Source: Syntrophobacteraceae bacterium CG2_30_61_12
Lineage (GTDB): Bacteria > Desulfobacterota > Syntrophobacteria > Syntrophobacterales > DSM-9756
Reading direction: 5' to 3'
Assembly (NCBI GenBank): GCA_001873705.1
Contig: MNZR01000016.1
Coordinates: 1-51,071, forward strand
DNA length: 51,071 nucleotides
Notes under the pieces: model-generated
Told to the model about the DNA's origin: nothing
The model's database searches: none
What the model saw: only the letters and a program-made list of their open reading frames with translations
Translations under genes and position numbers: made by a program
Part shown: in pieces, positions 1,700 to 43,543 of the stretch
Numbering within the stretch: position 1 is the stretch's first letter
Layout: every line of letters begins with the position of its first letter

Positions 1700-2674
1700 A
1701 TGCACTTACGAAAACGGGTATTGGTCACCGGCGGCGCCGGTTTCATCGGCTCCCATTTGTGCGAACGATTGCTTCAGGAGCAATGCGAAGTCCTGTGCGT
1801 GGACAACTTCTATACCGGGAGCAAGCGCAACATCGTCCACCTGCTTTCGCATCCGTGTTTCGAACTGGTCCGTCATGACATCACCTTCCCACTTTATCTC
1901 GAAGTGGACGAAATCTACAACCTGGCCTGTCCGGCTTCACCCATTCACTATCAGCGCGACCCGGTGCAGACCACCAAGGTGAACGTACATGGTTCCATCA
2001 ATATGCTGGGGCTGGCCAAGCGCGTAAAGGCCAGGATCCTGCAAGCATCGACATCCGAGGTCTACGGCGACCCGGACGTTCATCCGCAGCCGGAAGGCTA
2101 TGTCGGGAAGGTCAATCCCATTGGCCCCCGGGCCTGCTATGATGAAGGCAAGCGCTGCGCGGAAACCCTCTTTTTCGACTACCATCGCCAGCACGGACTG
2201 CGGATCAAAGTGGCCAGGATCTTCAACACCTATGGGCCGCGCATGCACCCCAACGACGGTCGAGTGGTTTCCAACTTCATCATGCAGGCCTTGCGGAATC
2301 AACCGATCACCATCTTGGGTGACGGCACCCAGACCCGGTCTTTCTGTTACGTGAGCGACCTGGTGGACGGCCTGATGCGGCTGATGAATACCCCCGACGA
2401 GGTGACCGGTCCGGTGAACCTGGGCAATCCCGCCGAACTGAGCATGCGCGAGTTGGCCGAACAAGTCATCCAATTGACAGGCTCGCGCTCGTCCATTGTG
2501 CAACAGCCCTTGCCGCCGGATGATCCGCGCCGCCGCCGGCCGGACATCGCCATGGCTCGCCGGTACCTGGGTTGGAACCCCAAGGTGGACTTGAAAACGG
2601 GCCTGATGGCTACCGTTGACTACTTCCGCGCCACCTTTGAGATGGGCCGTAACGTGGCTATTGGCAAAGTCTGA
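1700..2674 (+). CDS. uxs: UDP-glucuronate decarboxylase (UDP-xylose synthase), SDR family
   Basis: [19 protein letters not shown] Rossmann motif, [12 protein letters not shown], and catalytic YDEGKRCAE (YxxxK). Length 324 aa is typical. Confidence 0.85.
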
Positions 2675-3005
2675 GCGGAGTGCAAGAGAGGGGACCTGCG
2701 ATCTCTCTGCCGCAGGGCTACCCATGGCATTGCAACCACTGGATTTGCAAGACGATTTGTACGCGATTGGCGTGGATGTCTAGCCCGCTCACTTTGCATG
2801 GAATCGCAAGATGGTTTGGACTGAGTATCGAATTTGCGCCAGGCAAGACCGGTAACGATGAGGGTTTCTGGGGACTCGGGTGGGAAGGACGTCGGCCTCC
2901 ATCCAACACCAGATCGGCGATCTCAGCGGGGAAAGGGCGTGAGTGTTGCTCTAATTCAGAGCACCGTTCTTTCGACCGATGCTGGCTGAACCTGTTTCCC
3001 GTACC

Positions 3006-4454
3006 ATGATCAAGGAGAAACTCTTGCATCGCGGTTCCATCGGCTGCCCCCCGAGTCCCGTTGTCGGTTCACGCTCCGACCGAGACCTGCTGGTGGTTCA
3101 GCTGAACGTCCCTGCGGAAGAGGGAGAGGGTGACTATTTCCACCGTTCTTTTGCACCCGGAAAAGCCTTGTCGGAAAACTCCGGCGTCCATGTCATTAGT
3201 TTGACCAATGAGCATCGTCGGAAGTTTGCCATCATCGAGGCGGCCGATCTGCTGGTGATCACCATGGTGTGCGACCTGGATCTTATGCCGGTCGTCGAAC
3301 GTCGCCGCTGGGCAGGGTTGCCGACCGTATATGAATTGAATGACGATGTCTTCGACCTGCCGGTATCGAACCCGCGTCGCGCCTTCTACTCCAATCCCTT
3401 CAACCGCCAGCTCACCGAACTGCTGATGAAATCTTCGGACGCGGTGCAGTTCAGTTCCAGTGCGCTACAGATCAAGTACGGCCATTACCACGACCGATCC
3501 GCGGTGTTCTCCAATCAGCTCTCGTATCTCCCGCCCGAACGCCTTTGGCGTAACCGCCGGCCGGTGGTCGTGGGCTGGGGCGGGTCGATGGGCCACCTTG
3601 AAGACCTGCAAACGATTTCCGATGCGCTTTCCGGATGGTGCCGCACTCGTGATGATGTGAAGCTCCATCTCATGTGCGCCCCGGCGATCGCTGAACTTTT
3701 CGATGCGGTGCCGGCTCACAAGAAAACGCTTTTCCCGCCTGGTTCCATGCTGGATTACCATCAGTTCTTGGGTACCCTGGATATTGGCATCGCTCCCCTC
3801 AACCCGGTTTCCTACAACTCGGCCCGGTCCGACGTCAAATTTCTGGAATATGCGTCACACGGGGTCGTGCCGGTGTTGCAGCGGGCCCGACCCTACCTGG
3901 AAACGGTCCGGGAGGGGAAAACCGGTCTGATGTTTGACACCATTGATGAACTGTTAAGGCATCTGGATCATCTGGTGGCCGATTATCGCGATCGCGTGCG
4001 CCTGGGGATTGCGGCCCGCGACTTTGTGCTTCGGCACCGGACCCAGGTCCGGGGTGCCGTGGAGCGGCTTGCGTTCTATCAAGGTCTTTTTCCGAGCGGG
4101 GCAACCCGCACCGCGAGCGGGCACGTCCGGGGTCGGTTCGAACAATGGTCCACCCTGGAAGGTGCGGTGCGCCGCGGACGCCACCTGGTGTTGTTGCCGA
4201 CCGCTTTTGAAACAGCCTTGCGGGATGGTCTTTATGCCATGGAAAAAGGTTGGGGCCGGGAAGCCGGAAAATGTTTCCAGATTGCGCAATCGCTCTGCCC
4301 CGATGCCTATCTTCCGTATCTCTATCTCAGCGGCTGTGCCGGAATGGGCAGCAAGGAAGCTGCCGCCTGGGCGAAAGAAGCCCTGGCCAGGAATCCCGAG
4401 TCCCGGATGTGCCGGATGATCTTATCAGCAACCGCGAAAACTGCCGTTGGCTGA
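3006..4454 (+). CDS. GT-B fold glycosyltransferase-like protein with TPR-like C-terminus
   Basis: VVVGWGGSMGHLEDL and RSDVKFLEYASHGVVPV resemble the C-terminal nucleotide-sugar-binding half of GT1/GT4 enzymes. The C-terminus (KCFQIAQSLCPDAYLPYLYLSG...) looks TPR-like. Start placed at MIKEK. Confidence 0.5.
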   Translation: MIKEKLLHRGSIGCPPSPVVGSRSDRDLLVVQLNVPAEEGEGDYFHRSFAPGKALSENSGVHVISLTNEHRRKFAIIEAADLLVITMVCDLDLMPVVERRRWAGLPTVYELNDDVFDLPVSNPRRAFYSNPFNRQLTELLMKSSDAVQFSSSALQIKYGHYHDRSAVFSNQLSYLPPERLWRNRRPVVVGWGGSMGHLEDLQTISDALSGWCRTRDDVKLHLMCAPAIAELFDAVPAHKKTLFPPGSMLDYHQFLGTLDIGIAPLNPVSYNSARSDVKFLEYASHGVVPVLQRARPYLETVREGKTGLMFDTIDELLRHLDHLVADYRDRVRLGIAARDFVLRHRTQVRGAVERLAFYQGLFPSGATRTASGHVRGRFEQWSTLEGAVRRGRHLVLLPTAFETALRDGLYAMEKGWGREAGKCFQIAQSLCPDAYLPYLYLSGCAGMGSKEAAAWAKEALARNPESRMCRMILSATAKTAVG

Positions 4455-4464
4455 AAACGATCGG

Positions 4465-4494
4465 TCAAGGACTCTGGTACCGACAAGCCGATTA
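4465..4494 (+). promoter_or_regulatory. Weak sigma28-like element (TCAAGGAC-N14-GCCGATTA)
   Basis: It has the same TCAAG / TGGTACCG / GCCGATTA blocks as the flgM promoter candidate, but the spacer is 2 nt longer. Confidence 0.2.
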
Positions 4495-4761
4495 GCGGCA
4501 ATCTGCCATTTGTTGCCGTTCTGATTCGGTTTCAGATGGCCTTTGCAGAGCGCTTCATTTGGACGCTTGCGCAGCCTTGCGCGGGCCGGCGATCCAAAGG
4601 CGCGGCAAGAAGTCAATCTCGGCCTGACTCATTGACTGTCATTCTCGCCAAAGCATGCAGGAATGGTGAGGCGCGGCCAAGAGCCAAGAGTCGTCGGTCG
4701 CCCTATCGATATTCCGCTAACAATATACCGGCTGTTTCGAGCCCCTTGATAGCTCTCTGGT

Positions 4762-4777
4762 GGCACAGATCATGCTT
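4762..4777 (+). promoter_or_regulatory. Sigma54 -24/-12 promoter candidate upstream of rfbF
   Basis: TGGCAC-AGATC-ATGCT has correct GG-N10-GC spacing. It lies ~115 nt upstream of the rfbF ATG, inside a 437-bp intergenic region. Confidence 0.45.
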
Positions 4778-4891
4778 GTAATGGCGTGACAGCCAGAAAC
4801 ATTGACGGGGCAGATCCTTTCCGTTGCGAGGCTGGAGAAATCGCATCGGGGCTGCCCGCTGTTAGTAGACACGTGAAGAAGGAACAGGTCG

Positions 4892-5668
4892 ATGAAAGTT
4901 GTGATCTTCGCGGGAGGAATCGGAACGCGGATTTCGGAAGAATCCCACCTCAAACCAAAACCAATGATTGAAATCGGCGGAAAGCCTATTTTGTGGCACA
5001 TCATGAAAATATACGAGAGCCAGGGATTCAATGACTTCATCATTTGCCTAGGCTACAAGGGGTACATTATCAAGGAATATTTCCTGAATTATTATCTTTA
5101 CAATTCTGATGTGACCATCAATCTCCAAACCAACAGCCATGAAGTCCACCGGTCCAACTGTGAGAATTTCCGCATCACCCTGGTAGACACGGGCCTCTTG
5201 AGCGGCACTGCCGGACGTTTGAAGCGAGTAGAACGCTACATCGACAATCACGAGTTCATGCTCACGTATGGTGACGGGCTTGCGGATGTGAATCTGAACG
5301 AACTCCTGGCGTTTCATCGTGCTCGCGGAAAGATCGCCACGGTAACCGCTGTACAACCAGCCGGTCGGTTCGGTCTATTGGGAGTGGACGAAGCCGAGCG
5401 GGTCACGTGTTTCAATGAAAAACCTCTTGGAGACGGGGGCTGGATCAATGGCGGTTTTTTCGTGCTGAAGTCCGAGGTGTTTTCTTTCCTGCCGGAAGAC
5501 TCCGATCAGAAGATGTGGGAACAGGATCCCCTGGAAAACCTGGTTCTCGGTCATGAACTCGTTTCTTACAAGCACCACGGTTTCTGGAAATGCATGGATG
5601 CCTTGCGAGACAAGGAGGAGTTGGAAAGACTCTGGCAGTCGGGGCAGGCTCAATGGAAGACATGGTGA
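4892..5668 (+). CDS. rfbF: Glucose-1-phosphate cytidylyltransferase
   Basis: MKVVIFAGGIGTRISEESHLKPKPMIEIGGKPILWHIMKIY is the characteristic RfbF/DdhA N-terminus. Length is 258 aa. Confidence 0.9.
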   Translation: MKVVIFAGGIGTRISEESHLKPKPMIEIGGKPILWHIMKIYESQGFNDFIICLGYKGYIIKEYFLNYYLYNSDVTINLQTNSHEVHRSNCENFRITLVDTGLLSGTAGRLKRVERYIDNHEFMLTYGDGLADVNLNELLAFHRARGKIATVTAVQPAGRFGLLGVDEAERVTCFNEKPLGDGGWINGGFFVLKSEVFSFLPEDSDQKMWEQDPLENLVLGHELVSYKHHGFWKCMDALRDKEELERLWQSGQAQWKTW

Positions 5669-6771
5669 TGAACCGCGCTTTTTGGAAGGGGAAGTCGGTT
5701 TTCCTGACCGGTCATACTGGTTTCAAGGGCAGCTGGTTTTCCTTGTGGCTGCAACATTTGGGAGCTTGTGTTTCCGGCTATGCGCTGGCTCCGGAGAGCG
5801 GGGAGTGCCTGTATCATCAGGCTAGAGTGGGCGAGAGGTTGCACACGACCTACGGTGATGTGCGCGATGGTGAAAGGCTACACACCGCGATCACCTGGGC
5901 CAAACCCGAGATAGCCCTGCATTTTGCGGCACAACCGCTGGTGCGCGCATCCTACCAAAATCCAGCCTATACTTTTGCGGTCAACGTGATGGGAACGGTC
6001 AATTTCCTGGAAGCCATACGCCGAACGCCATCGGTTCGGGTGGCGGTAGTGGTCACCAGCGACAAGTGCTACGAAAATCGAGAATGGCGGCGGGGCTATC
6101 GTGAGAGCGACCGAATGGGCGGCAGTGATCCCTACTCATGCAGCAAAGGGTGCGCGGAACTGGTGACATCCGCGTATCGCCGTTCCTTTTTCGAAAATGG
6201 TCGGGTGGCGGTGGCCACGGTGCGGGCCGGGAACGTGATGGGCGGTGGGGACTGGGCTGAGGATCGGCTGGTTCCTGACCTGGTGCGCGCATTTGCCGGT
6301 GGCCGCATGGTGAAGCTGAGATATCCGAAGGCGGTGCGACCGTGGCAGTATGTTCTCGATCCGCTTCGCGGCTATATGATGTTGGTCCAACACCTGTGGC
6401 AGGCTGGAGCGACCTATTCAACCGCCTGGAACTTCGGCCCCGGGGACGAGGCTGCCTTTACTGTCGAGGACGTGGTCCGGGAAGCAGCAGGTCGCTGGGG
6501 ACCTGGAGCTTCCTGGGATGTGGATAGATCCTCTCAGCCCCGTGAAAGCCAGCACCTGAAACTTGACTGCTCCCAGGCTTGCTCTCAGTTGGGCTGGATA
6601 CCCCTGTTCGAGTTGGAAACCGCCCTGGATTGGACCCTATCCTGGTATTTGGCCCATCATTCGGGAAACGCGGACATGCGCGCCTTTTCGCAGGCGCAGA
6701 TCGCGGCATATGAAGACCTGTTGGCGGTTGCTCCAGGTCAAACCGAAAGCTGCCGAAGGAGATCGGCGTGA
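5662..6771 (+). CDS. rfbG: CDP-glucose 4,6-dehydratase
   Basis: [24 protein letters not shown] and YSCSKGCAE (YxxxK). The start is ambiguous (ATG at 5653, 5662 or 5668) and overlaps the rfbF stop. Confidence 0.9.
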
Positions 6772-8117
6772 GCGACCTGCGAGAAAAGATGCTTAGGCAG
6801 CAGGCCATTGAAGCGGCTATTGCGCATTATCAGCATGCTCATGGGCGGACCAGCAAGTTCCTTCCCGGGGATCGTGTTCCTTATGGCGGCCGCATTTTCG
6901 ACGCGGATGAGATCGCCAATTTGGTGGACGCATCGCTTGATTTCTGGTTGACGACCGGTCGCTATAGCGAAAGGTTCGAGGGCGAATTCGCCGACTTTCT
7001 CGGTGCTAGGTATTGTTCCCTCACCAACTCTGGATCATCGGCCAATCTGCTCGCTTTTATGGCGCTCACTTCACCAAAGCTTGGCCGACGACGCATCAAC
7101 CCCGGAGATGAGGTGATCACCGTGGCTGCCGCGTTTCCCACCACCGTCGCACCCATTATTCAATATGGGGCTATACCCGTTTTTGTTGATGTCTCGCTCC
7201 CCACTTACAACATCGACGTCGCTTTCCTCGAGTCCGCATTATCCGCAAAGACAAAAGCGGTCATGATCGCCCACACCCTCGGGAACCCCTTTGATCTCGA
7301 GACCGTATCAGCATTTTGCAGACAGCATGATCTCTGGCTCATCGAAGACAACTGCGACGCTCTGGGGGCTCGATATTTCCATGATGGGCACTGGCAATTC
7401 ACCGGGACCTTGGGACATCTCGGCACCTCCAGTTTCTATCCCGCGCATCATATCACGATGGGTGAGGGAGGAGCCGTTTACACCAACGACCTCCAACTGA
7501 AAAAACTAATAGATTCCTTCCGCGACTGGGGCAGGGATTGCTGGTGCCCATCGGGAAAGGACAACACTTGCCGACATCGATTTGAGCAGCGATTCGGTGA
7601 ACTCCCACCCGGATATGATCACAAGTATGTCTACTCGCATTTCGGGTACAACCTCAAGGTCACAGAGATGCAGGCAGCCATTGGCTGCGCTCAACTGCGG
7701 AAGCTTCCGTCTTTTATTTCCCGAAGACAGACCAATTGGCAGTTGCTGCATGCCGGTCTTTATGACATGCAGGACGTTTTCATTCTTCCCCAAGCGACAG
7801 CGAGTTCCGATCCCTCGTGGTTTGGCTTTCTCATTACCATAAAGGACGGCAAGCTCTTCAACAGGCATCAGATAATCAGCCACTTGGAAGAAAAAGGCAT
7901 TCAAACCAGAATGCTGTTTTCGGGCAATCTGCTCAAGCATCCTTGTTTCGATTTGATGCGTGGAACCAACACGGGTTATCGTGTGGTCGGAGACCTTGAG
8001 GTTACCAACCGGATCATGCGCGATTCATTCTGGATTGGAGTCTATCCCGGGTTGAACGATGAAATGATTGCCTATGTTGTTGCGGCGATCCTTGAATACG
8101 TGGAGTCACGGAGATGA
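6768..8117 (+). CDS. rfbH: CDP-4-keto-6-deoxyglucose 3-dehydrase (E1-type, PMP/[2Fe-2S]), DegT family
   Basis: DegT fold. [14 protein letters not shown] has His where aminotransferases carry the Schiff-base Lys. Cys cluster [12 protein letters not shown] (CxCx7C) is present. Length is 449 aa. Confidence 0.85.
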
Positions 8118-23729: not shown

Positions 23730-24923
23730 ATGTGTGAAATGAACAGCAGATCATTGCAGTCGGAAGAGAAGCCAGACCAATCCGGGAAACTCCGCGATGA
23801 CATGGATTGGGGTGCCGAGGGCGAGAGGAAATTCGCCGGGGGCAGCTATGAAGAAGCCTGCCGATGCTTTGAACGGGCCCTGCAATGCCGGCCTTTTGAC
23901 GCCAAGATGCACAACAACATGAGTGTTGCTCTCTGGCAACAGGGCAATACCGGCGATGCCCTTCAACATCTGACGCAAGCCCTTGAGCTGGACCCGGATG
24001 ATCGGGATGTGATCTTTAATTGCGGCAGGATTTTTTGCAAGCTGGGTCGCCAGGAAGACGCGCGCGAGATTCTGGGAGCTTTCCTTGACAGAAATCCCGG
24101 GGACGGCGAGGCCAAAAACGAACTGGAGCGATTGAATACGCCGGCACAAGATAGTCAACCCGTTGACTCCGCGGCTTTTTTGAACCAGCAGGGAGAGGAA
24201 CAATTCGCCAGGGGGAAAAAGGAGCACGCCCGGGTCTGCTTCGAGTTGGCGTTGGAACACAATCCGGATAGCGCGCGTGCCTGCAACAACCTCGGCGTCC
24301 TTTATTGGGGTGAAGGCGATCTAAAAAAGGCACTGGAGCATCTCTACAAAGCCCTGGACCTTGACGCTGAAGATGCGGAAATCCTTTATAACTCAGCCAA
24401 GGTATTGACGGCATCCGGTGAAGTGGAAACGGCTGCGGATTTCCTACAACTCTATCTGCAAAAGCACCCTCGGGACGAAGCCGCCTGGCAAGATTATAGG
24501 CAACTCATCAGCGAGAGCACGTTCGCCTGGAACAACAACGGATTGGCTCCGGAGGTCGGTGACATTTATCTCCACATGGGGCAGGCGCTGGCAGCAGCCA
24601 AGGACTATCCGGGAGCAGCCGAAGCCTTGGGGCGGGCGGCCATGCTCAAACCCGATGATGCGCAGCCGCTCTATCAATTGGGACTCCTTCATCTCGAACT
24701 CGAGCAAAAGGAAGACGCCATTCGCATGTTCCGGGCCGGCTTGGAAAGGGATCCGGAACACCGAGGGGTGATTCTTGCCCTGGCTCGCGCACTTATCGAA
24801 GAAGGCTGCCAGGAACAAGCTCGGCCCGTGTTGGAAGCTTATCTGGCAGGGCACGAAGACCAAGAAATGGCTTCCTATCTTGAGGATGCCGGGGCCACCA
24901 ATGAGCAGCCTCAGCTCGCCTGA
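23730..24923 (+). CDS. TPR repeat protein
   Basis: Multiple 34-aa repeats, for example EEACRCFERALQCRPFDAKMHNNMSVALWQQGNTGDALQHLTQALELDPDD. AAGGAG lies 6 nt before the ATG. Confidence 0.75.
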   Translation: MCEMNSRSLQSEEKPDQSGKLRDDMDWGAEGERKFAGGSYEEACRCFERALQCRPFDAKMHNNMSVALWQQGNTGDALQHLTQALELDPDDRDVIFNCGRIFCKLGRQEDAREILGAFLDRNPGDGEAKNELERLNTPAQDSQPVDSAAFLNQQGEEQFARGKKEHARVCFELALEHNPDSARACNNLGVLYWGEGDLKKALEHLYKALDLDAEDAEILYNSAKVLTASGEVETAADFLQLYLQKHPRDEAAWQDYRQLISESTFAWNNNGLAPEVGDIYLHMGQALAAAKDYPGAAEALGRAAMLKPDDAQPLYQLGLLHLELEQKEDAIRMFRAGLERDPEHRGVILALARALIEEGCQEQARPVLEAYLAGHEDQEMASYLEDAGATNEQPQLA

Positions 24924-30085: not shown

Positions 30086-31750
30086 ATGCATTGGGCAAGT
30101 TTTGATCCATTCACCATTGAAGATGCCTACTGGCAAGACAAGATGGGTATGCCCGTGGCCAATTTGGAGTTCCTGCAGGCGATCTTGGTGGCTGGGGATG
30201 TTGACAGTTTCCGCTTCTTTTGTGCGGATGCGGCTCAGTCTCGGAAGTTCTCCAACAAGCTTCGGCAGTTGGTTCCAACGGCCGGTTCAAAAATTCAGGT
30301 GCTTCCCCAAGCGTTGGCGCCGCAAAGCCTCCGTCGGCAGCCGCCGGACGTGATGCACAATGGAGACTTCACTCACTACATGCCGTACCTCATCGAGTGG
30401 CGCAATCGTGCGTTTGCCGACCGGCCGTTTCCGATCACCGGCGTGACCCACTCTTTGGACACCGTTTCCTTGCATGGCAAGTTCATTCAATTGCTGCTCG
30501 CCAATCCCAAGCCTTATGATGCCATCATTTGTTCCAGCCAGTGTGCCGTCGATATGTTACGGAACTCTTTCGCCGGAATTCGTGAAGCCTTGAAGGTTGC
30601 CTATGGAGCGAGTCTGCCGGCCCCCCCTCGGTTGGTCCGAATTCCACTGGGGATCGCGGACCGGGAATTCACGGCGGGGCAAAAAACGGTGGCGCGCAGG
30701 CGTCTGGGAATTCCTGAAGATCGTTTTGTGTTGCTCCATCTGGCTCGTTTTTCCCCGCGCCGGAAGATGGACCTGGCGCCATTTCTCGAGGCTCTGGCCG
30801 GGCTCAAGGGCCGAACCTTTGCCGGTCGCTCGTTGCCGCCCTGGCAATTGATCCTGGCCGGAGCCGGCAAGAAAGCCGACTTGACCCTGGTGCAAGAGAT
30901 GCTTGCTCGCCTCGGGCTCGATCGCGAGGTGCGCATCGAGCCCAACGTAACCCGGGAGAGGAAAGAGCTTTTGTTCCAGGCGGCCGACACCTTCTGTTCG
31001 TTGGTGGACAATCATCAGGAAACCTTCGGCCTGACGGTTGTCGAGGCCATGGCTCGGGGGCTGCCGGTCATCGCCTCTGACTTTAACGGCTACAAGGAAC
31101 TGGTCTCACCTGGGCGGACCGGATTTCTGATCCCCACCTACGAGAGTCTCGGCCACGAACCTTGGGAGGCCTTGTCCGGGCTGCTGGATCCTTCCATGCT
31201 GCGGTTTTATCGAGCCCAGAAAATTTCTTTTGACATTGATACCTTTTCCGATGCGGTGGTGCAGATGGCGTTCAGGCCCGAGTTGCGGGAGGCGATGGGC
31301 CGGCGGGCGCGGATTCGAGCGGAACCGTATCGGTGGTCGTCGATCTTGAAGGACTACCACCAGCTCTGGAAATCCCTGGCGCGGGAAGCACGGATGACAC
31401 GGGGCAAGAAGAATGTTGGTGGCAATCCGCTCCCCCTGTTGACCCCGTGCATGAACAGGAGTTTTTCGCATTTCCCGAGTGGCTCGATCTCATCCGATTC
31501 GATTTTGGGGTCGAGCGCCCATGCGAGTTGCCTTCCCAAAGGATTCGAACCCATTCGCTACGATGAGATGGCCATTCTGCTTCGTGACGATTGCCTTCAC
31601 TTCATCCTGGAGCAGTTCGAAAAGGGAGATTGCAATGTGCGCGAATTGGAAGATGAGGTGGTCGATCGGTTCCGGATGGACCAAGACCTTGTCCTGGTGC
31701 ATCTGGACTGGCTTTTGAAACATGGGCTGATCACTGTAAAAAAACTCTAA
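30086..31750 (+). CDS. GT4 (GT-B) family glycosyltransferase
   Basis: ETFGLTVVEAMARGLPVIASDFNGYKELV (Ex7E region). Confidence 0.75.
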   Translation: MHWASFDPFTIEDAYWQDKMGMPVANLEFLQAILVAGDVDSFRFFCADAAQSRKFSNKLRQLVPTAGSKIQVLPQALAPQSLRRQPPDVMHNGDFTHYMPYLIEWRNRAFADRPFPITGVTHSLDTVSLHGKFIQLLLANPKPYDAIICSSQCAVDMLRNSFAGIREALKVAYGASLPAPPRLVRIPLGIADREFTAGQKTVARRRLGIPEDRFVLLHLARFSPRRKMDLAPFLEALAGLKGRTFAGRSLPPWQLILAGAGKKADLTLVQEMLARLGLDREVRIEPNVTRERKELLFQAADTFCSLVDNHQETFGLTVVEAMARGLPVIASDFNGYKELVSPGRTGFLIPTYESLGHEPWEALSGLLDPSMLRFYRAQKISFDIDTFSDAVVQMAFRPELREAMGRRARIRAEPYRWSSILKDYHQLWKSLAREARMTRGKKNVGGNPLPLLTPCMNRSFSHFPSGSISSDSILGSSAHASCLPKGFEPIRYDEMAILLRDDCLHFILEQFEKGDCNVRELEDEVVDRFRMDQDLVLVHLDWLLKHGLITVKKL

Positions 31751-31775
31751 AGTCCCGGCGTCCAACTGTCGATCA
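31748..31775 (+). promoter_or_regulatory. Sigma28 (FliA)-type promoter for fliC
   Basis: TAAAGTCC-N12-GTCGATCA compared with consensus TAAAGTTT-N11-GCCGATAA. It overlaps the stop codon of the preceding GT gene, ~85 nt before the fliC ATG. Confidence 0.5.
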
Positions 31776-32789: not shown

Positions 32790-32817
32790 TAAAGCCGTCG
32801 GCGGATTCAGCCGATCT
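32790..32817 (+). promoter_or_regulatory. Sigma28-type promoter for fliD-fliS
   Basis: TAAAGCCG-N12-GCCGATCT, ~90 nt before the fliD ATG. Spacing matches the fliC candidate. Confidence 0.45.
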
Positions 32818-35781: not shown

Positions 35782-35809
35782 TCAAGTCTTGTTCACATTG
35801 AGCCGATTA
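35782..35809 (+). promoter_or_regulatory. Sigma28-type promoter for flaG
   Basis: TCAAGTCT-N12-GCCGATTA, ~77 nt before the flaG ATG. Nearly identical boxes occur at the flgM candidate. Confidence 0.45.
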
Positions 35810-38270: not shown

Positions 38271-38298
38271 TCAAGTCCATTGGTACCGCGGCCGATTA
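38271..38298 (+). promoter_or_regulatory. Sigma28-type promoter for flgM
   Basis: TCAAGTCC-N12-GCCGATTA, ~80 nt before the flgM ATG. Confidence 0.4.
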
Positions 38299-41883: not shown

Positions 41884-41928
41884 GAAAAACCGGGCGCGGG
41901 AATCCTCTGTAACGGTTTGTGGGGCGGT

Positions 41929-43296
41929 ATGGACGCGAGTGGCGAATCAGTGACCATCCTCTTTGTCAACACCCATGCGAACGAAATCGAAACCCTGGCG
42001 GCTCCGGTTAGGAGCCGGGGGTTTGCGACGGTTGCCGCGGATGGTCTGCCGGCGGGGCAGCGACTTCTGCAAGAGACCAGACCGGCCGTCGTTTTCCTGG
42101 AGATGAACGGGAACAAATCGCCGGTGCTGGACTTCCTTGCCCGGGTCGGGGCGCTCGCCGACCCGCCCCCGGTGATCGTGTTGGCTACCCAGGCACGGGC
42201 CGAGGATGCCACCGAGATCATGAGAAGCGGGGCCCACGATTTCTGGCTCAAGCCTGTCCCCGCCGAGCGCGTGCTCAAGACCGTGCAACTGCTCTGCGAC
42301 GATCAGGATTCGCCTGCCTGCCCCCGGCGCTTGGCGGAAGTCGACATCGTTACCCGCGACCCGGCCGTGGAACGGCTCAAGGCCGTCGCCCGGCAGGTGG
42401 CGCCTTCCGGGGCTACCGTCTTCATTCAGGGCGAAAGCGGTACCGGCAAGGAACTGTTCGCTCGTTATGTGCACTGGCACAGTCCGCGCCGGCACAAGCC
42501 CTTTATTGCCGTGAACTGCGCGGCGCTGCCGGACAATCTGCTGGAAAGCGAGCTGTTCGGCCATGAAAAGGGTGCTTTCACCGGAGCATCCCGCACCAAG
42601 AAGGGCAAATTCGAGCTGGCCCATGGGGGCACCATCCTGCTCGACGAGGTGACCGAAATCCCCATTCACCTCCAGGCCAAATTGCTCCGCGTATTGCAGG
42701 AAAACGAAGTGGACCGGGTCGGAGGACTCTACCCGGTGGCGGTCGATGTGCGGGTGTTGGCCACCAGTAACACGGCGGTGCTCGACGCGGTCCGAGCGGG
42801 TCGGTTTCGCGCCGATCTGTATTACCGTCTGAATGTCATCCCTTTGAAAATTCCACCGCTGCGCGGCCGTTCCGGGGACGTCGAGCTGTTGAGCGAACAT
42901 TTCATTCGCAAGTACGCCGCCGAAGCTCCCGGGCGTGACGAGGGGAAGGTATCCCTCGGCGCCGATGCCGCTCAGGTGCTGCGGGCCCATTGCTGGCCGG
43001 GAAACGTTCGTGAACTGGAAAACGTGATCCATCGGGCGGTGCTGTTGAGCCGCAACCGACAAATCGATCGTGATGCCCTCATTCTTGACGAGGCTCCGCC
43101 GGTCGGCGATTCCCGCGGCGGCCCAGTGGAACTCACCACGGTTGAGGAAATGGAACGACGTCTGATCCACACCGCGCTCGACCGCTACCAGGGCAATCGC
43201 ACGCGAGCCGCCGAAATCCTGGGGATCAGCGTGCGTACCCTGCGCAACAAATTGCAGAGCTATCGCGACACCGGGTTACTGGAAGCGGGCGTTTGA
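41929..43296 (+). CDS. Sigma54-dependent transcriptional activator (NtrC/FleQ class) with degenerate receiver domain
   Basis: AAA+ Walker A GESGTGKELFARYVH, sigma54-contact loop EKGAFTGA, C-terminal HTH AAEILGISVRTLRNKL. In the receiver, ILFVNTHANE replaces the acidic DD pocket and VVFLEMNG has E at the phospho-Asp position. Confidence 0.85.
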   Translation: MDASGESVTILFVNTHANEIETLAAPVRSRGFATVAADGLPAGQRLLQETRPAVVFLEMNGNKSPVLDFLARVGALADPPPVIVLATQARAEDATEIMRSGAHDFWLKPVPAERVLKTVQLLCDDQDSPACPRRLAEVDIVTRDPAVERLKAVARQVAPSGATVFIQGESGTGKELFARYVHWHSPRRHKPFIAVNCAALPDNLLESELFGHEKGAFTGASRTKKGKFELAHGGTILLDEVTEIPIHLQAKLLRVLQENEVDRVGGLYPVAVDVRVLATSNTAVLDAVRAGRFRADLYYRLNVIPLKIPPLRGRSGDVELLSEHFIRKYAAEAPGRDEGKVSLGADAAQVLRAHCWPGNVRELENVIHRAVLLSRNRQIDRDALILDEAPPVGDSRGGPVELTTVEEMERRLIHTALDRYQGNRTRAAEILGISVRTLRNKLQSYRDTGLLEAGV

Positions 43297-43300
43297 ACGA

Positions 43301-43314
43301 GTCAAAGCCTTGAC
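43301..43314. promoter_or_regulatory. 14-bp near-palindrome GTCAAAGCCTTGAC (possible activator box or weak terminator)
   Basis: GTCA-N6-TGAC lies immediately after the activator stop and ~215 bp upstream of the flgB sigma54 promoter. The half-sites resemble my recollection of the FleQ box GTCaNTAAAtTGAC. Confidence 0.25.
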
Positions 43315-43441
43315 TGCCGTGTTGGTCGGGCAGCGATGGTTGCCGCGCCGGCTCCCGCGGCCGCTAGCCTGATTCCGCCCAACCCACCTGGGCTACCCAT
43401 TGCTTCAATCTCCGAGCGGCATGCCCATCCATCCATCCCTC

Positions 43442-43527: not shown

Positions 43528-43543
43528 TGGTACGGAACTTGCT
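43528..43543 (+). promoter_or_regulatory. Sigma54 -24/-12 promoter for the flgB operon
   Basis: TGGTAC-GGAAC-TTGCT compared with consensus TGGCAC-N5-TTGCW. It lies 48 nt before the flgB ATG, and a sigma54 activator is encoded immediately upstream. Confidence 0.65.

Follow-up and report, generated by a model that had tools for sequence, protein, structure and literature searches.

The 437-bp gap in front of a sugar operon, rfbF-rfbG-rfbH, in the 51,071-nt stretch of DNA analysed here (hereafter, the window) very probably holds one real sigma-54 promoter, with its box at 4761-4776 and a predicted transcription start near 4787, and this promoter would drive rfbF-rfbG-rfbH together with the downstream glycan genes. 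The products of these genes are predicted to make a CDP-linked dideoxyhexose for a glycosylation island bounded at its 3' end by the flagellin gene. The likeliest activator of the promoter would be the flagellar FlbD/FleQ-type protein encoded at 41917-43296, which we infer to recognise GTCAA-N4-TTGAC at the flgB, flgF, and motA promoters. Sugar synthesis would then belong to the sigma-54 tier, that of the hook-basal-body genes, and precede flagellin, fliD, flaG, and flgM, which are driven by sigma-28. A sigma-28-like box at 4465-4494 most likely does not drive the operon. We assign a probability of approximately 60% to this explanation as a whole, namely, a sigma-54 promoter, a flagellar FlbD/FleQ-type activator, and a sigma-28-like box that is not the driver.

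The window corresponds to one contig (C195) of a 3.67-Mb assembly in 378 contigs, and nearly all of its genes lie on the plus strand. The glycan island spans approximately 1700 to 31750, with the flagellin gene at its end. The products of rfbF (glucose-1-P cytidylyltransferase), rfbG (CDP-glucose 4,6-dehydratase), and rfbH (3-dehydrase) each exceeded NCBIfam cut-offs, and the island further encodes an epimerase, the 491-aa glycosyltransferase-like protein, a sugar isomerase and a reductase, FkbM methyltransferases, B12- and SPASM-type radical SAM enzymes, and many GT2/GT1 and GT-TPR proteins, the last of which are candidate flagellin glycosyltransferases. Directly 3' of the island are flagellin, fliD, two fliS genes, flaG, cheD-fliW-csrA on the minus strand, and flgM, followed by a TPR protein, a sigma-54 activator, and flgB-flgC-fliE-fliF-fliG-fliI. 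The genome also encodes rpoN (contig C275) and fliA, the latter with a score above the cut-off. The nearest named relatives of rfbF were found in a Nitrospirae MAG and in many Desulfobacterota, and identical copies of the locus were found in groundwater metagenomes. A nucleotidyltransferase/HepT (MNT-HEPN) toxin-antitoxin pair is located at 518-1545, at the left edge of the island. The coordinates of the features discussed below are given in Table 1.

Table 1. Features of the rfbF promoter region and of the adjoining flagellar genes, in window coordinates
Feature	Position	Strand	Remark
FleQ-type box GTCATccaaTTGAC	2465..2478	.	Inside the epimerase gene, 2.3 kb 5' of the sigma-54 box; 1 mismatch
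491-aa glycosyltransferase-like gene	2979..4454	+	5' neighbour of the gap; the orthologue in G045 bears that island's sigma-54 box
FleQ-type box GTCATtagtTTGAC	3192..3205	.	Inside the glycosyltransferase gene, 1.6 kb 5' of the sigma-54 box; 1 mismatch
Sigma-28-like box TCAAGGAC-N14-GCCGATTA	4465..4494	+	Copy of the flgM promoter, spacer 2 nt longer
Weak terminator-like hairpin	4495..4516	+	3' of the upstream glycosyltransferase gene
FleQ-type half-site cluster	4611..4642	.	AGTCAA 4611-4616, CTGACT 4624-4629, TTGACT 4632-4637, GTCAT 4638-4642
Best and only significant local alignment of the gap with the L144 gap	4706..4780	+	Approximately 75 bp, ends in the sigma-54 box
Sigma-54 -24/-12 box TGGCACagatcATGCT	4761..4776	+	GG 4762-4763, GC 4774-4775
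Predicted transcription start	4786..4788	+	Leader of approximately 105 nt to the rfbF ATG, inferred from geometry
rfbF, rfbG, rfbH	4892..8117	+	Head of the sugar operon
Flagellin (fliC) sigma-28 promoter TAAAGTCC-N12-GTCGATCA	31748..31775	+	
fliD sigma-28 promoter TAAAGCCG-N12-GCCGATCT	32790..32817	+	
flaG sigma-28 promoter TCAAGTCT-N12-GCCGATTA	35782..35809	+	
flgM sigma-28 promoter TCAAGTCC-N12-GCCGATTA	38271..38298	+	
FlbD/FleQ-like sigma-54 activator	41917..43296	+	Degenerate receiver domain; candidate regulator
Reference flagellar enhancer AGTCAAagccTTGACT	43300..43315	.	213 bp 5' of the flgB sigma-54 box
flgB sigma-54 box TGGTACggaacTTGCT	43528..43543	+	

The gap (4455-4891) lies between the 491-aa glycosyltransferase gene and rfbF. 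Regarding the former, an alignment suggests that its real start is approximately 30 codons 3' of the annotated one, and a weak sigma-54-like box, GGGCGTgagtgTTGCT (8/11), is located before this gene at 2935-2950. A hexamer score trained on the genome revealed no open reading frame with coding potential in the gap, and neither paralogues of the gap elsewhere in the genome nor repeats within it were found. No known RNA family was detected in the gap, the sole match, to osmY, being below the threshold (19.5 bits versus 46.9). In DNA alignments with GTDB relatives, only the coding part of rfbF aligned, and the intergenic DNA did not. The idea that the gap is a remnant of an extra glycosyltransferase gene, which lies between the two genes in the relative G045, was rejected because tblastn found no trace of it. 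The hairpin is rated weak because one such site was found against 0.9 expected. That the gap is genuine is seen from 10 independent metagenome contigs, in which it was the same except for two SNPs, both C to T, at 4742 and 4753, just 5' of the sigma-54 box and clear of all motifs; two SNPs in ten strain-level assemblies represent too little variation to be informative.

A first-pass annotation of the window had pointed to TGGCAC-N5-ATGCT in this gap as a good -24/-12 match. The match is present and good, and its position is 4761-4776, one base away from the 4762-4777 originally assigned. Under the definition used, in which GG and GC are exactly 10 bp apart within TGGCAC-N5-TTGCW, the box (TGGCAC-agatc-ATGCT) agrees with 10 of the 11 consensus positions and has the exact GG/GC spacing. 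The single departure is in the first T of the -12 element TTGC, which is A in this genome and G in the closest diverged relative, L144. The box is intergenic, has the same orientation as rfbF, and ends 115 bp 5' of the rfbF ATG. The transcription start was predicted from the standard sigma-54 geometry, with GC at -13/-12.

This box also stands out from the genomic background. Sites with GG/GC and at least 10 of 11 matches numbered 76 genome-wide, and 28 of them were intergenic, an approximately threefold enrichment given that approximately 12% of the DNA is non-coding. Seventeen of the 76 were promoter-like, that is, with a gene start on the same strand no more than 350 bp away, and these included the sites before glnA, motA, flgB, genes for PEP-CTERM proteins and universal stress proteins, and rfbF. 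A weight-matrix scan against the genome background, which the first-pass annotation had proposed as a check, was performed with a matrix made solely from the boxes at relatives' rfbF loci; position 4761 ranked 20th among all genome positions on both strands, and 13 of the top 20 were intergenic. Another site within the window, TGGCACaaatcTCGCT (10/11), lies on the minus strand at 38158-38143, approximately 500 bp 5' of the csrA-fliW-cheD operon, and might be the promoter of this operon or of a small unannotated gene at 38017-37667.

Similar boxes recur at the rfbF loci of relatives. A box with at least 9 of 11 matches within 400 bp 5' of rfbF was found on the rfbF strand at 27 of 108 loci and on the opposite strand at 6 of 108. 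Among the same-order loci, rfbF was operon-internal and without a box in 12 of 29, and a box was present in 10 of the 17 with a gap of at least 180 bp before rfbF; in nine of these ten, the distance from the end of the box to the ATG is 128-139 bp. The box was found at 16 of 26 Desulfobacterota-type loci versus 1 of 53 Bacteroidota loci, with one locus (L065) reassigned to the Smithella group for this count. In L144 (a Logan contig), the rfbF of which is 88% identical, the synteny of glycosyltransferase, gap, and rfbF is the same, and a box, TGGCATgtatcGTGCT, is kept 105 bp before the rfbF ATG. The alignable block shared by the two gaps (Table 1) scored 40 versus 24.6 ± 3.4 (mean and SD) for shuffles, approximately 4.5 SD above.

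The surroundings of the box differ among the relatives. In G004, which belongs to the same family and a different genus, TGGTATgatccTTGCT is located 78 bp 5' of rfbF, and the rfbF operon is divergent from a GT-TPR/flagellin/fliD operon. In G045, rfbF is 79% identical and operon-internal, flagellin is 26 kb downstream on the same strand, and a 10/11 box is located 250 bp before the orthologue (44% identical) of the 491-aa glycosyltransferase. A Geobacter sulfurreducens strain (L147; CP072789, 3269316-3282095) has, in order, flaG, a gene for a 1265-aa protein, TGGCATtacagTTGCT (10/11), and, 57 bp on, rfbFGH. The island of this strain, which adjoins flaG, is homologous and includes rfbFGH, the isomerase, a B12 radical SAM enzyme, and an FkbM methyltransferase. 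These comparisons suggest that the sigma-54 control of rfbF operons is widespread in Desulfobacterota, a culturable Geobacter strain included.

Another explanation is that the -24/-12 match is non-functional or merely binds sigma-54, the operon being transcribed from a sigma-70-type promoter or by read-through from the glycosyltransferase gene. A sigma-70-like sequence, TTGATA-16-GATCAT (4746-4773, 9/12), overlaps the sigma-54 box; approximately a third of the top-scoring sigma-54 sites are in coding DNA, so that false positives exist; and the box in G045 precedes the glycosyltransferase orthologue and not rfbF directly. However, the sigma-70-like match is a weak one, of a kind often seen in shuffled sequence (0.3 expected per 700 bp), while the sigma-54 boxes keep nearly the same distance from rfbF in many lineages, within DNA that is otherwise unalignable, and the box forms the conserved end of the only block that is significantly alignable with L144. 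We consider this explanation to be distinctly improbable. The motif quality, the genome-wide rank, and the recurrence at orthologous rfbF loci uphold the sigma-54 promoter reading of the first-pass annotation, and the presence of a real sigma-54 promoter in the gap is, on this comparative evidence, well supported.

Every sigma-54 promoter needs an ATP-dependent enhancer-binding activator. The flgB, flgF, and motA sigma-54 promoters of this genome each have a FleQ/FlrA-type palindrome, GTCAA-N4-TTGAC: that of flgB is given in Table 1, motA has GTCAAattgATGAC 54 bp before its sigma-54 box, and a perfect sigma-54 box at the flgF operon (contig C377) is preceded by TTCAAagtcTTGAC. Of the 48 genomic occurrences of the less stringent pattern GTCA-N6-TGAC, five are intergenic, and two of these five are 5' of the flgB and motA sigma-54 boxes. 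A related pattern, GTCA-N5-TGAC, is intergenic at 41 of its 58 genome sites, which points to a further repeat family or to the motif of another regulator.

The GTCAA-N4-TTGAC palindrome is also found with the rfbF promoters of many relatives. With at most one mismatch, it was found at 15 of 25 relatives' rfbF loci with a sigma-54 box versus 0 of 82 without one. At the Desulfobacterota rfbF loci, it is located 60-185 bp 5' of the sigma-54 box, and in G004, GCCAATTCCTTGAC is 87 bp 5' of the box. In one genus of the same order (L115, L118, L121, L122, L123, L125, L129, and L130), the palindrome, as GTCAA-N4-TTGAC or as the variant GTCAnATTTTTGAA, has a fixed place: its end is 13-14 nt from the rfbF ATG, against the ribosome-binding site and approximately 100 bp 3' of the sigma-54 box. 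Enhancers are not usually located there.

Regarding the gap itself, the first-pass annotation had described a cluster of GTCA/TGAC half-sites at a distance typical for enhancer-binding sites. The cluster, AGTCAA..CTGACT..TTGACTGTCAT (full sequence, AGTCAAtctcggcCTGACTcaTTGACTGTCAT), is present, and its half-site is that of the local flagellar sigma-54 promoters; two exact AGTCAA/TTGACT hexamers were found in the 437 bp versus 0.08 expected. Its role as an enhancer is weakly supported. The half-site spacings are N9/N17, unlike those of the flagellar-promoter palindrome, and the GTCAA and TTGAC half-sites are 16 bp apart versus 4 in the palindrome. Between 4440 and 4895, no 14-mer was within three mismatches of GTCAANNNNTTGAC, a GTCAA-N4-TTGAC site, and the cluster is not conserved in L144.

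Near-canonical boxes are present elsewhere in the glycan island. Using GTCA[AT]-N4-TTGAC with zero or one mismatch, intragenic FleQ-type boxes were found at the two positions 5' of the gap that are listed in Table 1, as well as at 24154-24167 (inside a TPR gene) and 24396-24409, and no sigma-54 box, even at 7/11, was detected 3' of the latter two. The longer form AGTCAA-N4-TTGACT occurs just twice genome-wide, at 24153 and in the flgB enhancer at 43300. Four of the 13 genome sites matching GTCA[AT]-N4-[AT]TGAC are in the 51-kb window versus 0.18 expected. A similar arrangement was found in G045, which has two boxes 2.3-2.5 kb 5' of its sigma-54 box.

One interpretation of these patterns is that a portable module, consisting of a sigma-54 promoter and a GTCAA-N4-TTGAC box, heads rfbFGH operons across the order and in many Desulfobacterota. 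We offer this generalisation tentatively and rate it at somewhat less than even odds. Under it, the box would have been lost from the gap in the present genome or displaced to the intragenic sites 1.6-2.3 kb upstream. In the genus with the palindrome close to the rfbF ATG, the box would have moved to this fixed position 3' of the promoter, which would hint at a dual role as an activator site and a roadblock. If the module were real, flagella and a glycan of the surface or of flagellin would be under the joint control of a single flagellar master activator.

The candidate activator encoded 3' of flgM scored best against FlbD, not FleQ, and below the family cut-off. Its receiver domain has neither the acidic pocket nor the phospho-acceptor Asp, as in FleQ and FlbD. 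The genome encodes 24 sigma-54 activators, and a different one could, therefore, act at rfbF. Activators with a GAFTHA motif (contigs C90, C113, and C218) were considered as FlrA-like candidates and rejected because they have ordinary receiver domains and no flagellar context. Two of these response-regulator activators (C90:2703-4100 and C218:2610-3623) are near-identical, one being cut by a contig end, and the pair probably reflects assembly redundancy or strain variation.

The number of activators is one reason to consider that the sigma-54 promoter is real and is served by a non-flagellar activator, such as an envelope or exopolysaccharide regulator, with the operon answering to another signal and the flagellar neighbourhood not reflecting co-regulation. 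The gap is without the canonical flagellar palindrome, and other sigma-54 promoters in the genome precede PEP-CTERM and envelope-type proteins. Among the relatives, rfbF and flagellin are on one contig in G004, G021, G037, and G045; in G090, flagellin and the rfbF operon, which has a box, are 2.3 Mb apart, and in G040 a box-like site is present and flagellin is absent, which indicates that the association of sigma-54 with rfbF is not strictly flagellar. In Desulfovibrio, many sigma-54 promoters serve the cell exterior, and 23 are without an identifiable enhancer (PMC4641369). On the other hand, the rfbF promoters of relatives share the palindrome of the local flagellar promoters, FleQ-type boxes are enriched in the island, and the island, with the flagellin gene at its end, includes the GT-TPR candidate flagellin glycosyltransferases. 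Non-flagellar control appears rather unlikely in view of these features. By analogy with the relatives, a flagellar link of the rfbF promoter is plausible, at roughly even odds.

The first-pass annotation had also proposed a sigma-28-like promoter in the gap, TCAAGGAC-N14-GCCGATTA, sharing sequence blocks with the flgM promoter candidate. The sequence was found as described, and the sharing is real. A search for the composite TCAAG-N5-TGGTACCG-N0-6-GCCGAT with one mismatch allowed gave matches in only 1 of 96 same-order genomes, at exactly two sites (4465 and 38271), the form shared by these sites being TCAAG-N5-TGGTACCG-N(2/4)-GCCGAT. The confinement of this 28-nt composite to two sites in 96 genomes argues against chance and for a genuine flgM promoter copy into which 2 nt have been inserted. 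The -35/-10 pair alone is at the chance level, given that TCAA-Nx-GCCGATWA has 0-6 genome matches per spacer length and TCAA-N18-GCCGATWA occurs at chance frequency. A dispersed intergenic repeat, ...ACGCACGGGAACAGAT(T/G)GCCGATTTTAGT, was encountered on many contigs during the sigma-28 scan (e.g., C23:5991, C134:256, C146:12010, C317:39519, and C373:20807).

The four local sigma-28 promoters (fliC, fliD, flaG, and flgM) yield the consensus T(A/C)AAG(T/C)C-N12-G(C/T)CGAT, and the canonical sigma-28 (FliA) promoter of E. coli is TAAAGTTT-N11-GCCGATAA. In its -10 octamer and in the TCAAG start of its -35 element, the gap box matches the local promoters; its -10 (4487-4494) is the same as those of flgM and flaG and is GCCGATAA-like. 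In contrast, its spacer is 14 nt versus 12 nt in all four local promoters, GA replaces their (T/C)C after T(A/C)AAG, the box is far from the gene, and it is not conserved.

If this box were a working FliA promoter, it would produce a leader of approximately 390 nt and add late-class expression to the operon. The presence of fliA, the shared -10, and the non-chance composite favour this possibility. However, besides the deviating spacer and -35, a sigma-28-like box was found before rfbF at 0 of the 108 relatives' loci and is also absent from L144; moreover, the box of the present genome starts only 10 nt 3' of the preceding stop codon, lies 398 bp before rfbF, and abuts the terminator-like hairpin. 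An active FliA promoter at this position is, in our estimation, improbable, and the box is probably inactive or weak. The first-pass proposal that glycan synthesis is wired into the flagellar sigma-54/sigma-28 cascade is, thus, retained in part: the sigma-54 tier is plausible by analogy with relatives, with 24 candidate activators, and the sigma-28 part is not upheld.

If the sigma-54 promoter works as proposed, the nucleotide-sugar pathway that serves flagellin decoration would be switched on with the hook-basal-body genes and before flagellin. This order is sensible, is known in Epsilonproteobacteria, and would be extended to an uncultured groundwater lineage without a previous study on flagellar regulation. 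The analysis also provides a local sigma-28 consensus and a candidate flagellar enhancer motif for the group, and the Geobacter sulfurreducens strain with the L147 locus represents a tractable cultured model for the sigma-54 regulation of rfbF.

Sigma-54 wiring of this type is already known in other bacteria. Sigma-54-dependent middle genes and late genes under sigma-28 and FlgM have been reported in Vibrio, Pseudomonas, Campylobacter/Helicobacter, Geobacter, and Desulfovibrio (PMC2725144, PMC4641369). Known sites of the FleQ/FlrA type include the Pseudomonas FleQ box GTCaNTAAAtTGAC and the Vibrio cholerae FlrA site GTCA-N6-TGGC, and the motif predicted for DVU2894 in Desulfovibrionales is yGTCA-N6-TGACr (PMC6120874, PMC4641369). 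As in these regulons, -24/-12 promoters are present here at the hook-basal-body and motor operons, a GTCA-N6-TGAC inverted repeat is located 50-215 bp upstream at flgB, flgF, and motA, the candidate activator has a receiver-like N-terminus that is non-phosphorylatable, the late genes are under sigma-28 with FlgM, and the target island is physically linked to the flagellar genes. Unlike in these regulons, the rfbF gap has no intact box, and only mis-spaced half-sites and distant intragenic boxes are present; furthermore, in contrast to FleQ systems, the activator is closest in score to FlbD, below its family cut-off.

The RpoN regulon of Geobacter sulfurreducens includes -24/-12 promoters at the flgB, fliL-flhB, flgJ-flgM-flgK, and fliA operons, some of which were verified by primer extension (PMC2725144). 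One strain of this species has a homologous rfbFGH island by flaG, with a 10/11 box; the species belongs to another phylum, however, and its published RpoN regulon makes no mention of a sugar operon (PMC2725144). In Helicobacter pylori, a flagellin-glycosylation gene in the flaB-jhp0106 operon is RpoN-dependent (PMC5368276). The resemblance would be that a flagellin-glycosylation gene is read from a sigma-54 promoter belonging to the flagellar regulon, so that glycan supply and flagellar assembly are coupled. In H. pylori, the glycosyltransferase gene is expressed from the flagellin promoter and pseudaminic acid is the sugar concerned, whereas in the present genome, a predicted CDP-dideoxyhexose pathway is headed by a separate promoter, and the flagellin gene, driven by sigma-28, is 27 kb downstream.
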